Virus record (IMG/VR): IMGVR_UViG_3300045988_164290
Location: 1-48,543 of that record
Length of the DNA: 48,543 nt
Reading direction: 5' to 3' (one strand)
From: a virus
Notes under the pieces: model-generated
Seen by the model: the letters and a program-made list of their open reading frames with translations, nothing else
The model's database searches: none
Told to the model about the DNA's origin: nothing
Position numbers and translations under genes: made by a program
Part shown: piece after piece, positions 1 through 48,543 of the stretch
How the letters are laid out: every line of letters starts with the position of its first letter
How positions within the stretch are numbered: the first letter of the stretch is position 1

Positions 1-119
1 ATAACCTTGTTTTTCCATAAATTCTTGTAACTGCTTTTTCGCTGTAAGTTTATATTTATCGTTACACCACCGCGCAACCCTTGTCGGAAAGCCGTACCTT
101 TCGTAAAGTTCGCTCCACG
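1..119. repeat. terminal direct repeat copy 1 (identical to 48425..48543); circular-assembly overlap or terminal redundancy
   Basis: 119/119 identical on direct comparison of the two window ends. Confidence 0.95.
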
Positions 120-2270: not shown

Positions 2271-2862
2271 TGTTTCCACTCCTTATTTCATTTATTGTTG
2301 TCTGAATTTTTGTTTCAATTTCGGCTTGATTTTTACCTAATAATTGCCCAAATATTGCCATTAAACAAGTTGTTACTATGCTATCGCCAAAGCAATGATA
2401 TTGTGCCGAACGGCTTAAATTCTTGCCGATTTTGTATATGTCGTCGTCTTTAACGCCCATAAGCCTGCCACATTCTTTTTCGGTCAATTTGCGTACTCTG
2501 TATTCTCGCAAATTCGGCTCTACGATGCGGTTATTATGTTTTGGAGAACTGCCGTCGGTTGTCAGACAACCGATTGTTTCGTGCCTTATGCAAGAGTTCT
2601 GCTCGTCCAAAGCAAAAGGTTCTTTAAAAACTGTTTCTTCCATAATTTTAGGTTCTGTATTACCCCCCCCACACGTTGTCACCGTCGGCGCGCAACCGTC
2701 CGTGTCGTAAACCCTGCGCGTACAATCCATTGTTTTCTCGAATTTTCCACCGAGCCGACCTGCTATTTTACAATTCATTTTTTCTCCTATTACAACGTGC
2801 CAACACGCAATGTGTGCATCTATCGTCGGGCATATATCCAGCAGAGGTTCTACCCCCCCCAC
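2239..2862 (-). CDS. C-terminal segment of the split C5 DNA methyltransferase (TRD-like modules plus motifs IX-X)
   Basis: RRVYDTDGCAPTVTTCGGGNTEP, RKLTEKECGRLMGV and FGDSIVTTCLMAIF match the C-terminal half of C5-MTases. The frame is -1 relative to 2850..5048 and joins it at a G8 tract. Confidence 0.65.
   Translation of the reverse strand: MGGVEPLLDICPTIDAHIACWHVVIGEKMNCKIAGRLGGKFEKTMDCTRRVYDTDGCAPTVTTCGGGNTEPKIMEETVFKEPFALDEQNSCIRHETIGCLTTDGSSPKHNNRIVEPNLREYRVRKLTEKECGRLMGVKDDDIYKIGKNLSRSAQYHCFGDSIVTTCLMAIFGQLLGKNQAEIETKIQTTINEIRSGNNGKQQKTNTK
2663..2670 (-). repeat. homopolymer tract G8 (C8 on plus) inside the MTase 3' segment
   Basis: tacccccccca read directly; encodes CGGGN. Confidence 0.95.
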
Positions 2863-5048
2863 GGAAGTACCCGTGTCCTAATCGAACAATTACCTTTTCG
2901 TCCATAATTCAACTCCATTTTTGCCATTACAGTCAATCGTTCGGCACAATCCTTGCATCCCCCCCCCCTTTCAAAAGATGGTGATTTACCAAGCAACAAG
3001 CCATTTGCCTCATCAATGATAAAGTTGTCGCACGGACGAGTTCCGTTTTTCGTGAGGAGTGAGTTCGCTATACCGCTCCCATTAGTCGGCTCAAATTTAA
3101 AGCCGTTTCCACGCTCTGCATTTATTGTATTTCGATTAAAGTATGTTTCCAAAAGTTTCTCGCTTATATAATAATTTTGGGCAACATTGTTTTCAAGCAA
3201 ATCTTTTAGTTTTAAATTGCACCCAAGCGGTTTTGGGAACTCAAAATAATGATTGCCCAATACGCTTACCATAAAACACCTTTCACGATTTTGGGGTATT
3301 CCGAAGTTTGTAGCATTTATTACTTGCCATTTTGAGTGATAACCGATTTTATCTAAAAATGATACCCATTCAGCAAACGCTTTAATATTCTTATTCCCTA
3401 TTACTTGTTTAACGTTTTCCATTAAAAGAATTTGAGGTAATTCTGGGATTTCCTTCAAAAGCCTTTCAACTTCCCACAACAACCCACTTCTTGTTCCACT
3501 TCCCCTTTCCATTCCTTTACCAAGTCCCGCCGCAGATAAGTCCTGACAATTATGCACTATCGTGTTTTGCACTGTAAATGAGTGATTATTTTCAACTTCT
3601 ATATCGTATACATTCGATTGCCCACATTCGGTCACGCTTTTGATAGGAAACCAAATAAAACCATTTTCATAAAACGCTTTATCTTGCTTGCATACCTTTT
3701 CTTTCCAAATCAACTCGTATGTGTCGTGTTGATTTACAGTTCTACCCTCAATAACGCAAGTTTTCGCTCTCTTTGTATGATAAATTCTATACGGCATTCT
3801 ATATACTTTTGCAACACATTGACCAAGCCCATATATAAGTCCTCTGCTTATACTTGTTGCCTTATTATATCCCTTTATCACGCACCCGTCAGCACTCATA
3901 TAGCCGTTTAAAAACGAACGCAAAAGGTCTCTCGGCAAGTCCAATATAGTGTTTGTTAAATGCTTGTTTATCGCACCTTTCCCAAATTGTTCAACGAACT
4001 GCGAAAATTCTTTTTGCGGAATATGTATTTTATATATCGTCCGTTCTTTCACAATATTATATTTAAACAATTTATCGAGTTTTTTAACAAGGGTATCTAA
4101 CTTCTTAAAAGAACAGCAAATAACGATGCCGCCTTGTTTTCTTGTCCAGCCGTCTCCAATATATCGCCCTATTACATACCAAAAATCAGCATATTCCATA
4201 AGACCAGCCAATTCGTTTTTGTGACGTGCTTTTCTTCCGTCAGACCAATTATAAGTAATTCCATCCCACGAGGGAATTATTGCTTTTTGATTTATTGCGA
4301 CGCCCAAATAATCACTTTTTGTAAGTTGCACCGCCTCTTTCCAATATGGGTCTGAAAAAGTCCGACGAGAAAAATGTCCTACTCTACTCATAGTTCTTAC
4401 AAAAAACTTGTGATTTGTAGTGCATTTTATTTCGTCTATTGCCATAGCGTTAATTTTTAAAATGGGTTTAATACCATTGTTAAAAGTTTTCACGACTTTT
4501 TGATATGTATTATCGTGAGTAATAACCATCTCCCCAGCCTGAATTTTATCTATTGTTTTATAGCCACTATTCGTTAAGACAAGACTATCTGCCGTAAAAC
4601 AGGGGAATGAGTACGTCATAATATAGTTATATTTGTCGGTGTCTTTCACCTCTAAGTCTTCGCCTTTTATATTGCAAATTGAAACAAGGTTGTGCGAGGC
4701 TTGAATATTGTTGTAAATTGTCCGCAGTTTTTTCTCACCGTATCTATTCAACTGCTCTTTTGTGAGCGGCTGATTATAATCTGCACTGACGCCCATTTTA
4801 AAGAGAGTTTCAACAAGTTCGGGTTTGCCAAGTTCCTTTGAATAATCGTTATTATCTTCGGCAAAATGCAAATCTTTTAACGCCTGTATAGACGGTATCG
4901 CCCATTCGCAAGTTTTATAATGCTCAAACGGAACGCCCAAATATTTTAACGCTAATGCTTGACTGTCGTAACCGCTAAACAACGAAATAAGTCGTATAGG
5001 TTTTTCAATTTTAAACGGCTTTTCGCCGTCAAACATACTAATCTGCAT
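2850..5048 (-). CDS. DNA (cytosine-5) methyltransferase, N-terminal part, interrupted by an in-frame intein
   Basis: Motif I-like LISLFSGYDS. Motif IV is split as TYSFP|C...HN|CQDLSAAG. LLMENV is motif VI and GIPQNRERCFMVS is motif VIII. Confidence 0.85.
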   Translation of the reverse strand: MQISMFDGEKPFKIEKPIRLISLFSGYDSQALALKYLGVPFEHYKTCEWAIPSIQALKDLHFAEDNNDYSKELGKPELVETLFKMGVSADYNQPLTKEQLNRYGEKKLRTIYNNIQASHNLVSICNIKGEDLEVKDTDKYNYIMTYSFPCFTADSLVLTNSGYKTIDKIQAGEMVITHDNTYQKVVKTFNNGIKPILKINAMAIDEIKCTTNHKFFVRTMSRVGHFSRRTFSDPYWKEAVQLTKSDYLGVAINQKAIIPSWDGITYNWSDGRKARHKNELAGLMEYADFWYVIGRYIGDGWTRKQGGIVICCSFKKLDTLVKKLDKLFKYNIVKERTIYKIHIPQKEFSQFVEQFGKGAINKHLTNTILDLPRDLLRSFLNGYMSADGCVIKGYNKATSISRGLIYGLGQCVAKVYRMPYRIYHTKRAKTCVIEGRTVNQHDTYELIWKEKVCKQDKAFYENGFIWFPIKSVTECGQSNVYDIEVENNHSFTVQNTIVHNCQDLSAAGLGKGMERGSGTRSGLLWEVERLLKEIPELPQILLMENVKQVIGNKNIKAFAEWVSFLDKIGYHSKWQVINATNFGIPQNRERCFMVSVLGNHYFEFPKPLGCNLKLKDLLENNVAQNYYISEKLLETYFNRNTINAERGNGFKFEPTNGSGIANSLLTKNGTRPCDNFIIDEANGLLLGKSPSFERGGGCKDCAERLTVMAKMELNYGRKGNCSIRTRVLPWGG
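2853..2860 (-). repeat. homopolymer tract G8 at the junction of the two MTase ORFs
   Basis: CCG TGG GGG GGG TAG ends the 732-aa frame. One extra G, or a -1 slip, continues as ...GGVEPLLDICP. Confidence 0.95.
2959..2968 (-). repeat. homopolymer tract G10 inside the MTase
   Basis: gcatcccccccccctt read directly; encodes ERGGGC. Confidence 0.95.
3549..4601 (-). mobile_element. intein (351 aa) with LAGLIDADG homing-endonuclease domain, inserted in the PCQ catalytic motif
   Basis: CFTADSLVLT is block A and TTNHKFF is block B. WYVIGRYIGDGW and LNGYMSADGC are two LAGLIDADG motifs. NVYDIEVENNHSFTVQNTIVHN is followed by the +1 Cys. Removing the intein gives TYSFPCQDLS. Confidence 0.85.
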
Positions 5049-13419: not shown

Positions 13420-13568
13420 TTCTCTTCGTCCTCGTCTTTTTCTTTTTCCTGCCAAAATTCGGCTTTCTCGCCCCGTTTTGCCTTTTTGTAGTCGGTTATA
13501 AGGGTATAGGCTAAAACGCCCGTTACAACCACCAATAAACCGCTCAGAATAATAATGTTGCCTATCAT
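13416..13568 (-). CDS. small single-pass membrane protein (50 aa)
   Basis: MIGNIIILSGLLVVVTGVLAYTLI... followed by an acidic tail; ATGA overlaps at both ends. Confidence 0.4.
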   Translation of the reverse strand: MIGNIIILSGLLVVVTGVLAYTLITDYKKAKRGEKAEFWQEKEKDEDEEK

Positions 13569-13882
13569 TTCACTTTGTTCTCCTTTGATAAAAATTTTAA
13601 ATCGTTTTCGGTAATTTTTTTATGCTTAAATGCTTCAATAACAATAAAGCCGTTTTTTTTGTGTTCGCCCTGTATTTCGTATGATAAAATATAATCGTTG
13701 TAACTCGTAGGGCGTTTCCCGTAAAAGTATGCGAACGCATTCCAAATCCTTGCCTTAAAGGGCTTTCGTCCGACTTTAAAAGCGACCCATTCGTCTCGTC
13801 CGTTCGGGGTGAAAAACCGTTCAACCGTGATTTTGTCTTTCAAATCGTCATCAAACCCTGATAGAAATTGCTGTATAATCAT
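13565..13882 (-). CDS. hypothetical protein
   Basis: 105-aa ORF with ATGA overlap. Confidence 0.55.
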   Translation of the reverse strand: MIIQQFLSGFDDDLKDKITVERFFTPNGRDEWVAFKVGRKPFKARIWNAFAYFYGKRPTSYNDYILSYEIQGEHKKNGFIVIEAFKHKKITENDLKFLSKENKVK

Positions 13883-14286
13883 TTCTTCGCTTTATACCTT
13901 TTTAAAAACTTTTCTGCCGTGTCGGCGGCGGTGCTTGCGTTGTGTCTGTACGCCGTCAGAATTTCGCCGCAGACCTTTTCAAAGTCGGTTGCCGTTAAGT
14001 CGGGGCGGCGGGATTTGACCGTATAGGCTATAATCAACTCGGGAAGTTTTACGCCGCAGTCGTAAGCGCGGAATAATTCCGCCGTAAATGGCATTTCGCC
14101 AAGTTCGCAGAATTTCCAACGCCCGCCCCATTTATCGGAAACAACTCCCGCCTGCTCGTCAATTGTCATTTCGTCGAAGCCGCTTTCTTGTTCGTCGCAG
14201 AATTTCGACATCGCAGAAGAAAGATTTTCGGCGTATTGATAATCAAATTCGCCCGTTTCGTCGTCTATTAGTTTAAAAATTTTCAT
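13879..14286 (-). CDS. hypothetical protein (135 aa)
   Basis: ATG at 14286 overlaps the target-gene stop (ATGA). The first 14 track codons are an out-of-frame reading of the VR flank. Confidence 0.55.
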   Translation of the reverse strand: MKIFKLIDDETGEFDYQYAENLSSAMSKFCDEQESGFDEMTIDEQAGVVSDKWGGRWKFCELGEMPFTAELFRAYDCGVKLPELIIAYTVKSRRPDLTATDFEKVCGEILTAYRHNASTAADTAEKFLKRYKAKK

Positions 14287-14924
14287 TTGTCGCCATCGGT
14301 CACATTTGCGGAAGATTTCAAGATGCAAAACGGACGAACGCCGCAGTCGAAGTTACAAAAATTGTAGTACAAAGTACCATTGTAGCCGACGTAACGGACA
14401 AGCTCGCTTTTATAATGGTTTTGACCTGAGTCTGGCGTGGCAGTCCACCACCACGAGCCAACGGGGAAGCGGTCAAGCGTTTTGACAAAACGGCGGTATT
14501 GTTCGCAAGTCAGAAGCCCTATTTTTTGCAGACAGTCGCCGAAATCGTTTAGCCCGTCATCGGCGGTTAGGTCGGTAGTGTGGGCGAGTATTTGCTCAAT
14601 ATCGAAACGTTGCAGAAATTCGCCATTTAACCACGAGCGAAGGCTCGATTTTGCGAAGTTCGGCGATTTATTGTCAAATACTTTTTCGATTATTTCGCCG
14701 TCTTCGTCTTTTAATAATTCTTTCGTGATGACTGCGACCCCGTCGGCGTTTTTGTCTAAAACGACCCAATCAAGCCCGCCGAAGTTCAGGACTTCGCCGA
14801 TCTCGAACTCGTCCGCCCTCTTTGCGTTTAAAAGTTTTATAATTTCGGCGTTGTCGATTTTTACGAAAATTTCGCCGTTTTTGCGTGTAATGTTTTTTTC
14901 GTTTATTGTCAATGTAATTTCCAT
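14283..14924 (-). CDS. DGR target protein 1 (DUF6273-like, C-terminal variable region)
   Basis: FEIGEVLNFGGLDWVVLDKNADG..., WWWTATPDSG...VRYVGYNGTLYYNFCNFDCGVRPFCILKSS; the 3' end matches the TR. Confidence 0.85.
   Translation of the reverse strand: MEITLTINEKNITRKNGEIFVKIDNAEIIKLLNAKRADEFEIGEVLNFGGLDWVVLDKNADGVAVITKELLKDEDGEIIEKVFDNKSPNFAKSSLRSWLNGEFLQRFDIEQILAHTTDLTADDGLNDFGDCLQKIGLLTCEQYRRFVKTLDRFPVGSWWWTATPDSGQNHYKSELVRYVGYNGTLYYNFCNFDCGVRPFCILKSSANVTDGDK
14329..14410 (-). repeat. DGR variable repeat VR-1
   Basis: Ungapped 82-nt match to TR 43836..43917. I count 12 mismatches, and all sit where the TR coding strand has A. Confidence 0.9.
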
Positions 14925-14928
14925 TTTT

Positions 14929-15147
14929 TTATTCTCCTTTGTTCGCCTCGCTCAACGCTTTTAAATAAGCGGTGTATATTGTGTTTACTGTTTTTAAATT
15001 CGCCCGAGCCTCCTCGTTATACTGTGAAGAGTAGTAGGCGATTGAGAACCCCGCCCATGTGGCGAGATCTTCCTTTTCCTCTCTTGTGCCTGTCTTCGCT
15101 ATGCTTTCCGCATCCGCGATAGCCTGCTTTAATTCTTCAGTGTTCAT
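14929..15147 (-). CDS. hypothetical protein (72 aa), first gene of the early block
   Basis: ATG at 15147 after AAGGAG (MNTEELKQAIADAE...). Confidence 0.55.
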   Translation of the reverse strand: MNTEELKQAIADAESIAKTGTREEKEDLATWAGFSIAYYSSQYNEEARANLKTVNTIYTAYLKALSEANKGE

Positions 15148-15193
15148 TATTAACTCCTTCGGGGCGTCTGCCCCTCTCAATCTTTACGCCCTT

Positions 15194-15222
15194 AGTATAC
15201 CACACTCCGCCGCCGTTGTCAA
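15194..15222 (-). promoter_or_regulatory. early promoter TTGACA-17-TGgTATACT
   Basis: The reverse complement reads TTGACAacggcggcggagtgTGgTATACT. A GGGGC-agac-GCCCC hairpin follows in the leader. Confidence 0.7.
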
Positions 15223-15399
15223 CCCTTTTTCTTGTACTTTCGTTCGCTCCCCTTATACTTTCGCCCGCTCTTTATCTCTTTTATTTATATTCTTTTTACG
15301 CCCCCGGGCGTTTTATTATGGAAAGCACAAACAACCGACAAAGGGGGAAGGAGGGGGAAAGGCTAACCCCTTGCCGCCGCCTGAATGGTTGCAAAACAC

Positions 15400-15551
15400 G
15401 AGAAGAGAAAAAAAGAAAAACGAAAAAAAAGAAAAGGAAAAGACGAAAAGCGAAAAGACAAACGAAAAGAAAAGTAATATAAAAGAAAAGATAAAAGAAA
15501 AGATAAAAGAAGAAAAGGGATAAGAAAAAAAAGAAAAAAGAAAAAAAGAGG
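15400..15551 (+). repeat. polypurine tract (~150 nt, >90% A/G on plus) with GAAAAG and AAGAAAAGATAA repeats
   Basis: Read directly. I count roughly 11 pyrimidines in ~152 nt. Confidence 0.9.
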
Positions 15552-15556
15552 CACGG

Positions 15557-15645
15557 GCGCGCAGGGGTGTGTGTAAGATAATATAAATATAGCGCGCTCG
15601 TGTAATATATTATAAATTCGGCGAGCGTGTAGATTATATATACAC
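15557..15645. repeat. three imperfect ~30-bp modules: GCG(C/A)GC, then GTGTA, then an alternating AT run
   Basis: GCGCGC at 15557 and 15592, GCGAGC at 15621; GTGTA at 15571, 15600 and 15627. Confidence 0.7.
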
Positions 15646-15878
15646 TATGCCGCCGTTTTTTGAAATTGTTGGGATTGTGTTTGTTTTGTGGTTGTTCTGT
15701 GAATGTGCAATAAAGCCCGCTTAAAGGGGGGAAGAGAAAAGACGAACGGCGGGAAGCGTTCCCGGGGGGCGGAGTTGTCCCGCCGCCTCCGACCGCTTCA
15801 ACAGCAACGGCAGCCGCCCCGTCCCTATTTTTTGAGGGTGTGCCAGCCCGCCGTTTACCCACACCCAATCAGAAAAAG

Positions 15879-41951: not shown

Positions 41952-42610
41952 TTTATTTTCTTAATTCCTGCTAATTCCTCGAAACGATCGAGTTCGTTCC
42001 TTATTTGCTCTTGCGAAATAGTCGGCTGTATAAATATAGGCAACCCGTCGCTTGCTCTTTTCATTGAGTGACCGATTTTTTCTGCCGCCAACTTTTCGCT
42101 TATAGGTCTACTGTCGGCAAGTCCGCTTTCCGAAGTGATAAGGTTTATCGAAACAAGCGTATCATCTATCCACTGAAAAACTGCCGAATAATCATAAGCG
42201 GTCAGCAAATCGTTATAATCTTTAACGGTTAGCCCGCAAAACCCGCAAAACAGTTGCTTAGAGGCACTTACTACGGCATATTCGTTAATATGCCCCATAA
42301 GCCTAATAAACTGCTTATAGGCGGCTTTGTAGCCGTCAGGCGGTATTTCTTCGGGTTGTTTTATGATAGGAAAATCAATAAATTCGCCATATAACGCACA
42401 ACTGATTTTTGTCGGCGTACAGGTAGGCTTTATTTCGTTCCGTTTTGTTGCTCGTTTTGTGCGAACAGTATCGCCGTCTCTCGTTACCTTAGTGTCGGTC
42501 ACATCATCGTCTGATAAATCAAATACTGTTTCGTCAAGGCTTTTGATTATTTTATCGGCTTTTGCCTTAAACCCGTATTTGTCAGCCGTCTCAGTCGTTT
42601 TCTTCGGCAT
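41948..42610 (-). CDS. hypothetical protein (weak resemblance to small-terminase DNA-binding regions)
   Basis: 220-aa ORF; the ...KQLFCGFCGLTVKDYNDLL... resemblance alone does not support a call. Confidence 0.45.
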   Translation of the reverse strand: MPKKTTETADKYGFKAKADKIIKSLDETVFDLSDDDVTDTKVTRDGDTVRTKRATKRNEIKPTCTPTKISCALYGEFIDFPIIKQPEEIPPDGYKAAYKQFIRLMGHINEYAVVSASKQLFCGFCGLTVKDYNDLLTAYDYSAVFQWIDDTLVSINLITSESGLADSRPISEKLAAEKIGHSMKRASDGLPIFIQPTISQEQIRNELDRFEELAGIKKIK

Positions 42611-42782
42611 TTCCGCTCCTTAAACCGTGGTCGAGAATGTATTTTAATTCGCTTTCTTTTATACGCCACGTCTTACCCAATTTTACTCCCCGTATTTGCT
42701 TCTTTTTCAAAAGTGTATAGAGGGTTCGGTGAGCATAACCTAATTTTTTACTTGCCTCTTCCAGGGTGAAAACTTCTTCCAT
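42591..42782 (-). CDS. excisionase-family / MerR-type HTH DNA-binding protein
   Basis: FTLEEASKKLGYAHRTLYTLLKKKQIRGVKLGKTWRIKESEL. Confidence 0.6.
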   Translation of the reverse strand: MEEVFTLEEASKKLGYAHRTLYTLLKKKQIRGVKLGKTWRIKESELKYILDHGLRSGNAEEND

Positions 42783-42796
42783 TTTCTTATCTTCCT

Positions 42797-43753
42797 TTAT
42801 AATTTCATTTTTTCAAACGCTTTCCACGAAGAATAACTTTTTTGATAAATTTCAGTTTCGCCGAGTTTTGTTTTTAACCTATTATATTTTTTATTTGCTC
42901 GTCTGCGATTTTCTCCGCATAATACTCTGATAGGTTCACTGTTGTTCGGGTATGTATGAAAACCTAAAAATTTTATTCCGTCGCTAAAATGCATTATTTG
43001 AGTTTTGCCGTTAAGGCTTAATTTTAAATTTAACAGTAATTTTGCGATTTCCGTTAAGCAGTATTTTAGATAATTTTTATCTGCGTGAATTAAATAAAAG
43101 TCGTCCATATATCGCCCATAATATTTGATTTTTAATTTATTGACGATAAAATGGTCTAACTCGTTTAATAGCAAGTTTGCAAATAGTTGGCTCGTTTGAT
43201 TTCCAAGTGCAAGTCCATCACCGTCAACACTATCAATAAACATATCGCATAGTGATAATACCTTGTTATCTGAAAAATAAACCCGCAACTTATCTTTTAA
43301 AACGCAATGGTCTATTGTATAGAAAAATTTTGTTATATCGCACTTTAAAAAGTATCCATTACTGCCGTATTCTTCAAAAAAGTCTTTTTCATCTTGCAAT
43401 AATCTATTTAGCCCATATAATGTGCCTTTGCCTTTTCGACCCGCAAAACACCTATCAATAAAATGTTTTTCCATTTTAGGAATAAGCACATTTTCGCATA
43501 GGCTCATTTGCACGATTTTGTCTTTCGGGTGAGCAGATTTTATTAAACGTTTTTTCGGCTCAAAAATTTCAAACTCATTATAAGGGCTAATTGTGTAACT
43601 GCCGTTAATAAGTTGTTTTTGCAAAATATAAAGGCTTTCAAGTGTCATACTTTCTATTTTGCATAATCGAAAACTTTTCCGTTTCCCTCGCTTAGATTTT
43701 TTCCACGCTCGATATAAATTACCAAAGTTTACTATTTGCTCAAATTCAGTCAT
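42797..43753 (-). CDS. DGR reverse transcriptase
   Basis: ATG at 43753 (MTEFEQIVNFGNLYRAWKKSKRGK). Motifs: KKRLIKSAHPKDKIVQ, CDITKFFYTIDH, LALGNQTSQLFAN (the DGR-type SQ motif), YGRYMDDFYLI and GIKFLGF. Confidence 0.9.
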   Translation of the reverse strand: MTEFEQIVNFGNLYRAWKKSKRGKRKSFRLCKIESMTLESLYILQKQLINGSYTISPYNEFEIFEPKKRLIKSAHPKDKIVQMSLCENVLIPKMEKHFIDRCFAGRKGKGTLYGLNRLLQDEKDFFEEYGSNGYFLKCDITKFFYTIDHCVLKDKLRVYFSDNKVLSLCDMFIDSVDGDGLALGNQTSQLFANLLLNELDHFIVNKLKIKYYGRYMDDFYLIHADKNYLKYCLTEIAKLLLNLKLSLNGKTQIMHFSDGIKFLGFHTYPNNSEPIRVLCGENRRRANKKYNRLKTKLGETEIYQKSYSSWKAFEKMKL

Positions 43754-43766
43754 AAAGTCAAAAGAA

Positions 43767-43931
43767 AGGTTGCATACTCTTTTGCATAATGCGGACTGAT
43801 TTCGGCTTTTGCCTACTCTTTCTCCCTGTTTCCAGAACGGACGAACGCCGCTGTTGTTGTTACAATAATTGTTGTTCAATGTACCATTGTAGTTGACGTA
43901 ACGGACAAGTTCGTTTTACAGTATGCAACCT
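43767..43931 (-). repeat. 12-bp perfect inverted repeat bracketing the TR and spacer
   Basis: Plus 43767..43778 (aggttgcatact) is the reverse complement of plus 43920..43931 (agtatgcaacct). Confidence 0.85.
43836..43917 (-). repeat. DGR template repeat (TR)
   Basis: Lies between avd and the RT gene. Read in the VR frame it encodes NELVRYVNYNGTLNNNYCNNNSGVRPF, with 9 Asn codons. Confidence 0.9.
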
Positions 43932-43937
43932 GAATTT

Positions 43938-44288
43938 TTATTTATCTTTTGACCGCCAAGCAAGCGTTAAATGCTTAACGTCAGCAATAGACTTCGCCCA
44001 AAATTCGCTGTCGTCTGCTGACATAATTTTACACTCAACGCATAACTCCACATAAAAACTTAACTCGTCGCACAATATTATTGCACGGCTTTGTCTTTTG
44101 TTTCTCTCCGCAATATCCCTCATTTGATTAGCCTCAAACAAGTATTCATAAATCTGCAACGCTTTTGTTTGCATTTTGTCGCAGAGCGTAAATCTATACT
44201 TTTTCGGGAATTTTTTGCAATTTGAGGTTTTTGTGATTGTATAAACTGCTAATTGTTTCGCTTTTACTATTACTGTTAATTCCTGCAT
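43938..44288 (-). CDS. avd: DGR accessory variability determinant
   Basis: ATG at 44288 overlaps the target stop (TAATG). 116 aa, helical; ...NCKKFPKKYRFTLCDKMQTKALQIYEYLFEAN... is typical of Avd. Confidence 0.8.
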   Translation of the reverse strand: MQELTVIVKAKQLAVYTITKTSNCKKFPKKYRFTLCDKMQTKALQIYEYLFEANQMRDIAERNKRQSRAIILCDELSFYVELCVECKIMSADDSEFWAKSIADVKHLTLAWRSKDK

Positions 44289-44926
44289 TATCGCACGACC
44301 TCGCAACAAGATTTCAAGATGCAAAACGGACGAACGCCGCTGATGATGTTACAATAATAGTAGTTCAATGCACCACCGTAGCTGACGCAACGGACAAGCG
44401 TTTCATATCCTCTTGTAGGCGTGGAATATGCAGTAGCAAGCCACCACCATTTTTTAGGGTTGTATTTAAGCATAATGTTCGTGTATTTGCAATATAATTC
44501 GCAAGTTAAAAGACTTACGTTGGCTTTGCATTTTTTATAATCTCTTAAACCGTCGTCTGCGGTTAAATCAACAGTATGCTCGCAAATGTTATTTGCGCCA
44601 ATTAAAGCCGCTAATCTGACGTAATATTCGTCGTTAAGGAATGAATAAATTTCAGACATTGCAAAATTATTCGTATCGCTATCAAACTTGCGGCTATCGG
44701 GAAGTAAATCTTTTTTCAAAACCGCCGTCGTATCGCCGCTTTGTTCAAGAACTATCCACTCTTCGCCGCCGATTTTAAAAGTTTCGCCGACGGGAACGCT
44801 TGCAAGTTTCACCTTCTTGTCAAAAAGGTCTTTCACTCTGTCAACGGGAATTTCAAAAATGATTTTATCGCCATCACGTTTTACCGCTTCGTTATCAGTT
44901 ACCTCAATCGTTATTTTTTTTGCCAT
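44288..44926 (-). CDS. DGR target protein 2 (DUF6273-like, C-terminal variable region)
   Basis: ATG at 44926 after GAGAGGTG. FKIGGEEWIVLEQSGD..., WWWLATAYS...VRCVSYGGALNYYYCNIISGVRPFCILKS. Confidence 0.85.
   Translation of the reverse strand: MAKKITIEVTDNEAVKRDGDKIIFEIPVDRVKDLFDKKVKLASVPVGETFKIGGEEWIVLEQSGDTTAVLKKDLLPDSRKFDSDTNNFAMSEIYSFLNDEYYVRLAALIGANNICEHTVDLTADDGLRDYKKCKANVSLLTCELYCKYTNIMLKYNPKKWWWLATAYSTPTRGYETLVRCVSYGGALNYYYCNIISGVRPFCILKSCCEVVR
44325..44400 (-). repeat. DGR variable repeat VR-2
   Basis: Ungapped match to TR 43836..43911. I count 11 mismatches, all at TR adenines. Confidence 0.9.
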
Positions 44927-48014: not shown

Positions 48015-48543
48015 TTTTCTAATTCCTCCAACTTTTTCAGCCATTTTGTTTTTATAACTTTTTCAAGATAGTCAGCATTGTATTTTGGTTTTGACGAAAC
48101 GCAGGAAAACGGTCTGCCGAGTTCTTTCTCTCGAATGATTTCCGTTTCACGCATTTTGTTTATCATAAAGGCGAAATTTTCGGGATAATACTTGTAAAGG
48201 TACGCAAAATTTATAAAACTTGCCATAGGACAATACATACACCCGCAACGCTTTTGCGTTTCATAATAGTGGTTGAATATCGGTTGCGTTTTTGCCCACG
48301 CCCAAACCGTTTCTTCTTCGATTCTTTCTTCGACGAGTGGATAACGTTCGACTTTTTGCAAATCTACACGCTTTGCAAAACGCTTTTCTTCGTCAGCGCA
48401 ATACCCAATATAAAAAACAGTATAATAACCTTGTTTTTCCATAAATTCTTGTAACTGCTTTTTCGCTGTAAGTTTATATTTATCGTTACACCACCGCGCA
48501 ACCCTTGTCGGAAAGCCGTACCTTTCGTAAAGTTCGCTCCACG
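48011..48543 (-). CDS. PAPS reductase-like protein, C-terminal part (same gene as 1..366; 48425..48543 duplicates 1..119)
   Basis: ...YTVFYIGYCADEEKRF...CGCMYCPMAS.... Joined across the junction the gene is 780 nt (259 aa). Confidence 0.75.
   Translation of the reverse strand, partial: WSELYERYGFPTRVARWCNDKYKLTAKKQLQEFMEKQGYYTVFYIGYCADEEKRFAKRVDLQKVERYPLVEERIEEETVWAWAKTQPIFNHYYETQKRCGCMYCPMASFINFAYLYKYYPENFAFMINKMRETEIIREKELGRPFSCVSSKPKYNADYLEKVIKTKWLKKLEELEK
48425..48543. repeat. terminal direct repeat copy 2 (identical to 1..119)
   Basis: 119/119 identical to the window start. Confidence 0.95.

Follow-up and report, generated by a model that had tools for sequence, protein, structure and literature searches.

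The DNA analysed here, referred to below as the window, is a stretch of 48,543 nt and represents a circular or terminally redundant assembly of a siphovirus-like gut phage, with about 48,424 bp of unique sequence. Between 15.9 kb and about 35 kb, a plus-strand block codes for terminase, portal, major head protein and tail proteins. Homologues of the capsid protein and of the targets suggest a host among the Clostridia. The minus-strand arm extends from 15.9 kb, over the junction of the ends, to 41 kb and contains genes for a replisome organiser, a DnaC-like loader, RecT, SSB, several DNA methyltransferases and a recombination directionality factor. The same arm holds two genes for DUF6273 proteins, termed target1 and target2. 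Since both targets lie in this DNA-metabolism arm, neither of them adjoins tail genes, which is somewhat unusual among phage DGRs. The window carries one DGR cassette, situated on the minus strand at 42.8-44.9 kb and arranged in the order target2, avd-like gene, template repeat (TR) and reverse transcriptase (RT). Each target contains a variable repeat (VR). The relevant features are as follows.

1..119, identical to 48425-48543, no strand: terminal direct repeat, 119 bp, exact, an assembly signature
14283..14924, minus strand: target1, 213-aa DUF6273 protein (Pfam DUF6273, E=6e-12; PHROG 9958)
14312..14344, minus strand: 3' boundary block of VR1, 33 nt, composed of the 16-mer GCGGCGTTCGTCCGTT and the 17-nt tail TTGCATCTTGAAATCTT
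14329..14410, minus strand: VR1, remote variable repeat, 82 nt, codons 173-198 of target1, gapless match to TR
42797..43753, minus strand: reverse transcriptase, 318 aa from ATG, RVT_1 with YMDD
43836..43917, minus strand: TR, non-coding, adenine-rich copy between avd and the start of RT
43938..44288, minus strand: avd-like accessory gene, 116 aa, in the canonical place between target and TR
44288..44926, minus strand: target2, 212-aa DUF6273 protein (Pfam DUF6273, E=1.3e-6), paralogue of target1
44308..44340, minus strand: 3' boundary block of VR2, the same 33-mer, identical to the VR1 block
44325..44398, minus strand: VR2, cassette-adjacent variable repeat, 74 nt, gapless match to TR

Because the 119-bp terminal repeat is exact, the genome is circular or terminally redundant, and the distances that the earlier note had given between VR1 and TR are thus correct: they measure about 29.4 kb within the window and, by way of the circle junction, about 18.8 kb. 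Another assembly of the same genome is present in ENA (ERZ28569356 / SAMN02333939; 48,479 bp; L288) and differs in 1 base over the 15,869 bp compared. A locus search with a 176-aa gene midway between the two VRs retrieved only this assembly, and look-up of a 135-aa neighbour protein gave no match.

Two further observations concern the minus-strand arm. A 732-aa ORF (2850-5048, minus strand) represents a DNA methyltransferase interrupted by an intein; Pfam domains Intein_splicing, Hint_2 and DNA_methylase are recorded for the identical product of L288, and the PHROG match of this ORF to ribonucleotide reductase is probably due to the intein. Upstream of target1, three related loci (L162, L287 and L298) encode a 556-aa protein with a weak LPD29 match. 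In the window, short unrelated ORFs (72-83 aa and 190 aa) replace this gene at 14929-15868, and similarity to the three loci ends at about 14940.

RT of the cassette matches Pfam RVT_1 with E=2.6e-15 and possesses the YMDD motif. Its best match among solved structures is 8ub7_A ("Reverse transcriptase", 328 aa), a full-length yet distant sequence match only (E=2e-36). The RT start lies about 80 nt downstream of TR; an alternative, longer ORF with TTG start reaches 43879 and overlaps TR. In some relatives, the RT ORF continues through the HTH_17/excisionase-like gene that lies downstream, so that an RT-HTH fusion of 387 aa is called, whereas in the window the two genes are separate (318 aa and 63 aa). 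The fusion ORFs and their equivalents are:

L166, 4177-5340, and L293, 3036-4199: RT-HTH fusion ORFs; window equivalents 42797-43753 and 42591-42782

The avd-like protein has DivGenRetAVD as its best NCBIfam match (E=1.7e-10, 41 bits, under the 80-bit cut-off). Its Pfam matches, bAvd (E=3e-4) and 23S_rRNA_IVP (E=8e-5), are both below cut-off as well, and a sequence search of PDB with the 116-aa protein yielded no match. TR contains 28 adenines in 82 nt, including runs of AAC/AAT codons. Apart from the substitutions given below, its position and sequence are the same in the RT-bearing relatives L166 and L293.

The earlier note had proposed that a second variable repeat, remote from the cassette, is served by the same TR. 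On the coding (minus) strand, VR1 does match the full TR without gaps over 82 nt. It differs at 12 positions, all of which (12/12) are TR adenines (5 A>G and 7 A>T); the codon changes given as examples, AAC to GGC, TAC, TTC and GAC and AGC to TGC, are each present. With 28 adenines in TR, the chance that 12 random mismatch sites would all fall on A is 3.7e-7. VR2 displays 9 mismatches, likewise all at TR adenines (9/9). The two VRs also differ from each other, as had been claimed, at 13 positions, every one of them a TR-adenine position. VR1 occupies the 3' end of its gene, codons 173-198 in a 213-codon ORF, and both VRs fall within the last 40 codons of the DUF6273 proteins.

The idea of one RT/TR for two loci agrees with the content of the genome, in which there is a single TR-like copy and only two TR-VR pairs. 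A scan of the window for adenine-biased repeat pairs detected two, TR-VR2 and TR-VR1. Repeat searches, together with searches for the 16-mer and the 33-mer, led us to reject the idea that the window contains another TR or any VR beyond these two. VR1 is thus a second VR outside the cassette that shows adenine-only differences and lies on the same phage contig, with no other TR or RT present.

Both VRs end in the same boundary block. The G+C-rich 16-mer GCGGCGTTCGTCCGTT has exactly 3 copies in the window (VR1, TR and VR2), and the complete 33-mer exactly 2 (VR1 and VR2), with 0 expected by chance. TR possesses the first 16 nt of the block only and diverges directly after ...CCGTT, so that the 17-nt tail TTGCATCTTGAAATCTT is identical in VR1 and VR2 and different in TR. 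In the BPP-1 paradigm, the difference between IMH and IMH* gives homing its direction. GCGGCGTTCGTCCGTT with the VR-specific tail fits IMH at each VR and IMH* at TR, which is the expected arrangement. The tail also encodes the peptide FCILKS, conserved in the family, and part of its identity may therefore reflect protein constraint; one relative has a synonymous change in it. DNA folds of 96 nt from IMH, compared with shuffled sequences, revealed no stable hairpin or cruciform downstream of the VRs (z = +2.05 and +1.12 for the two VRs). Guo et al. 2011 reportedly found that BPP-1 target recognition needs such a structure downstream of VR. Target recognition may thus differ here from that of BPP-1. 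A DGR can be called without the hairpin/cruciform, which is part of the BPP-1 paradigm.

The exact boundary 23-mer is absent from IMG/VR. A metagenome scan with GGCGTTCGTCCGTTYTG, which encodes the widespread peptide GVRPF/L, gave at least 120 unrelated loci, and none among the matches listed resembles the window.

Target1 and target2 share 36% protein identity, as paralogues, and their DNA alignment beyond VR and boundary block displays scattered identity only. The AF2 model of target1 has a pLDDT of 92.4, and VR is predicted to form C-terminal beta strands in it. DUF6273 proteins from uncultured phages are the structural neighbours of the model. In PDB, Foldseek gave a single strong match, 9qa6 (E=4e-7), the IgA peptidase of Thomasclavelia ramosa with a DUF6273-type domain, and C-type-lectin-like domains match weakly. 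These structural matches agree with the literature, in which DUF6273 is described as C-lec-like (PMC10743442).

In databases of phage sequences, relatives of this locus are distant. A DNA search of INPHARED with positions 13500-15500 gave no match, and protein matches to target1 in the same database are remote (nd12 and nd4 tgt2, 38-40%). No close relative was found in IMG/VR, where target homologues are at most 42% identical and RT homologues at most 53%. Among 80 IMG/VR loci with small DUF6273 proteins (L001-L080, 36-46% identical), none (0/80) has RT or a TR-like repeat within 3 kb. Small DUF6273 targets distant from the cassette may be common. A 45.8-kb contig, IMGVR_UViG_3300045988_024008 (L014 and L061), encodes two such targets, paralogous to each other, in which variable segments resembling VRs and a conserved boundary, GGCGTTCGCCCGCTTTGC, are present.

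Close relatives were obtained from a large protein collection: target1 has 23 clusters of orthologues there (77-90% identity), many of them from contigs 46-49 kb long, and target2 has about 45 orthologues. The resulting comparative series consists of dozens of genomes, about 90-95% identical, some with TR/RT and some without. The view of the earlier note that both loci are diversified is borne out by these relatives. VR1 is not invariant: its mean entropy is 1.45 bits, compared with 1.32 bits in VR2. In target1, this value applies to the hypervariable residues 166-195, while residues 1-165 and 196-213 have mean entropies of 0.21 and 0.12 bits, respectively; the corresponding flanks of target2 have 0.34 and 0.38 bits. 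At both VRs, variable columns correspond to those TR codons that contain A. Among 24 target1 orthologues, columns of A-containing TR codons have 7.0 distinct residues per column and A-free ones 1.5 (Mann-Whitney p=1.3e-5); among 45 target2 orthologues, these numbers are 7.7 and 2.7. When cluster members were added, 60 target1 orthologues contained 47 distinct VR1 peptides, with 5-26 differences from the window protein in their first 159 residues.

A second RT-bearing genome could be reconstructed from Logan contig SRR25571702_11136 (48,984 bp). One of its loci (L293) holds VR2, TR and RT, and another (L298), about 17.4 kb off, holds VR1. Compared with its own TR, mismatches outside adenines are absent here too, 13/13 in VR1 and 15/15 in VR2 being at adenines. 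The TRs of this genome and of the window differ at two positions. In both genomes, the number of non-adenine mismatches is 0 when a VR is compared with its own TR and 1-2 when it is compared with the TR of another genome; the exception is L293 VR2, which has 0 to the TR of L166. Since a non-adenine TR polymorphism (C/T in AAT/AAC) is copied into VR1, the two genomes provide direct comparative evidence for flow of information from TR to VR1. NODE_955 (48,741 bp; L166), a third genome, has CTT>TTT in its TR. The VR1 allele P0009, putatively that of NODE_955, carries Leu>Phe matching this change; the DNA of this allele, as seen on L287, has 2/13 mismatches at non-adenine positions versus the L166 TR.

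Several VRs deviate in length by one codon, in either direction, from every TR seen (VR2 of L166, VR1 of L162 and VR2 of L161, L165 and L289). These differences are always within AAC/AAT runs, which suggests either slippage in cDNA synthesis or unsampled length variants of TR. Further, target1 orthologue P0024 (49,436-bp contig) contains a target2-like stretch, KYTDIMLKYNPKKWWWLATAYSTPTRG, at residues about 145-170, just upstream of VR. This target1/target2 chimera points to recombination or gene conversion between the paralogous targets.

Many close relatives are without exactly the TR+RT module (window 42797-43937, 1155 nt). In these loci (L161, L165, L289, L291, L292, L294, L295 and L299-L305), the avd stop is directly followed by the HTH_17 gene, with one identical junction (AAAGATAAATAA/AGGAGGCAAAATATGG), and avd and both boundary-bearing VRs are kept. 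In RT-bearing genomes, the module is flanked by a short ATAAA repeat. Some RT-less relatives have an Avd protein identical to that of the window. Assemblies with RT-less relatives include ERZ27233094 and ERZ28574677. Seven different VR2 sequences occur among the RT-less loci. Within RT-less lineages VR2 alleles recur (P0316 on 15 contigs, P0317 on 9), as do the presumably linked VR1 alleles (P0278 on 20 contigs, P0309 on 11). The avd gene carries a frameshift in one RT-less lineage, and a split target2 occurs in a different one. This looks like freezing of VRs, followed by decay, after loss of RT. Recurrence of alleles and decay in RT-less relatives support the dependence of both VRs on this cassette.

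Taken at the level of sequence, adenine specificity, the shared boundary, hypervariability among relatives and tracking of each genome's own TR are demonstrated. The locus is very probably a canonical DGR with two targets, in which each VR is independently rewritten from one TR. Following the BPP-1 paradigm, the cassette at 42.8-44.9 kb would transcribe TR; RT together with Avd would copy the TR RNA into cDNA, misincorporating opposite template adenines, and the cDNA would replace VR wherever the matching 3' boundary, GCGGCGTTCGTCCGTT followed by TTGCATCTTGAAATCTT, is present. As this boundary occurs at two sites, at VR2 next to the cassette and at VR1 some 18.8 kb off, each VR would be rewritten independently. 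The outcome would be two small putative binding proteins with about 15 codons randomised on what is presumably the surface for ligand binding. Homing of cDNA from the cassette to a site 19 kb off is proposed here by analogy, and the element may be active in this particular genome at present. Several results count against the two-target reading: the non-adenine mismatches of the L287/P0009 allele, the VRs that deviate in length from every TR, the lack of a stable hairpin, the possible protein constraint on the 17-nt tail and the avd scores under the cut-offs.

The same observations bear on other explanations of VR1. It might be a fossil, written once from TR or from an ancestral TR, with VR2 alone being diversified today. 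Frozen VRs do occur in this lineage, as loss of TR/RT together with fixed VR alleles is seen in many relatives. However, among orthologues VR1 varies as much as VR2. In two independent RT-bearing genomes, its mismatches to the cognate TR all fall on adenines, and the C/T difference between the TRs of these genomes reappears in it. Its 3' boundary block, moreover, is intact and identical to that of VR2. On account of the variation among orthologues and of the adenine-only VR1 of SRR25571702_11136 we reject a fossil VR1, which we hold to be quite improbable.

Ordinary paralogy or gene conversion among the targets and TR, with no retro-homing at VR1, could be considered because target1 and target2 are paralogues and the chimeric P0024 demonstrates that such paralogues recombine. 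Yet neither process would put 12/12 differences on adenines of a non-coding third copy (p ~4e-7) or make variation in 60 orthologues track the A-containing TR codons, and the scattered DNA identity of the targets beyond VR and boundary block speaks against them as well; this explanation is extremely unlikely. It is just as hard to credit that VR1 is served by a different DGR, with TR/RT in the host chromosome or in a co-resident phage. The seven VR2 sequences of RT-less relatives leave room for such a supply in trans, but VR1 has 0 non-adenine mismatches to the resident TR in two genomes and tracks TR polymorphism between genomes, and the phage genome contains no other copy of TR.

The archetype of these systems is the DGR of BPP-1 (mtd-avd-TR-brt), with a single target, the protein of the tail-fibre tip. 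The DGR with two targets described here resembles it in the order target, avd-like gene, TR and RT, in adenine-specific mutagenesis, in the place of VR, which lies 3'-terminally in the gene for a lectin-fold protein, and in a G+C-rich boundary common to VR and TR that is followed by VR-specific sequence. It differs from BPP-1 in having two targets and no hairpin predicted downstream of its VRs.

Targets apart from the cassette are known. In the survey of Wu et al. 2018, 73 non-adjacent targets were assigned to 45/372 DGRs, with "many examples" in phage-associated DGRs (PMC5758913). As in those phage DGRs, one TR/RT is accompanied here by one target in the cassette and another in the same (pro)phage within 50 kb, the second target being assigned by A-to-N-only differences from TR (PMC5758913). 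Unlike them, the present case comes from a different uncultivated phage lineage, its two targets are paralogues of each other, and comparison of dozens of near-identical genomes speaks for activity. Dispersed VRs served in trans by one TR have also been described in the DGRs of Treponema denticola, Legionella and Stenotrophomonas (PMC5758913). These cellular multi-target systems reside in chromosomes and not in virions; the number of their targets reaches 7-8, and the distances extend into the megabase range.

Two VRs with one TR have been reported in the gut phage DGRs nd4 and nd12, which have DUF6273 targets (Baykov et al. 2023, PMC10743442), and two-target DUF6273 DGRs in the Faecalibacterium prophages Lelie, CP11 and Lagaffe_CP (PMC11792537). 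All of them share with our phage a gut origin, one TR, two VRs and DUF6273 / C-type-lectin-like targets, and the small nd12 tgt2 is the best phage-database match to target1 (40% identity). In nd4 and nd12, however, both targets belong to the cassette and have unlike architectures (tentaclin with a 5' VR and a small protein), whereas here they are same-sized paralogues, both with 3' VRs, one of them about 19 kb from the cassette, and both are located in the DNA-metabolism arm and not beside tail genes. Since non-adjacent phage targets and two-target DUF6273 DGRs are already published, the layout is a known one and the surprise is modest.

The relatives without TR and RT, with their at least 7 different VR2 sequences, allow one more reading, in which TR-RT is a dispensable polymorphic unit and RT-less phages are re-diversified in trans by co-infecting RT-bearing relatives. 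The remote VR1 would already show the cassette acting 19 kb away, which speaks for this reading; we nevertheless regard it as unlikely. If it were true, the DGR would be a shared population-level mutator, able to reach any genome with the 33-nt boundary.

Judging by sequence comparison, the two-target phage DGR is real and evolutionarily active. It leaves the present understanding of DGRs unchanged and adds a cleanly documented natural case of one DGR template with two dispersed paralogous targets in a phage. Its comparative series represents a natural experiment on the turnover rate of each VR, on joint selection, and on the fate of VRs and avd after loss of RT.
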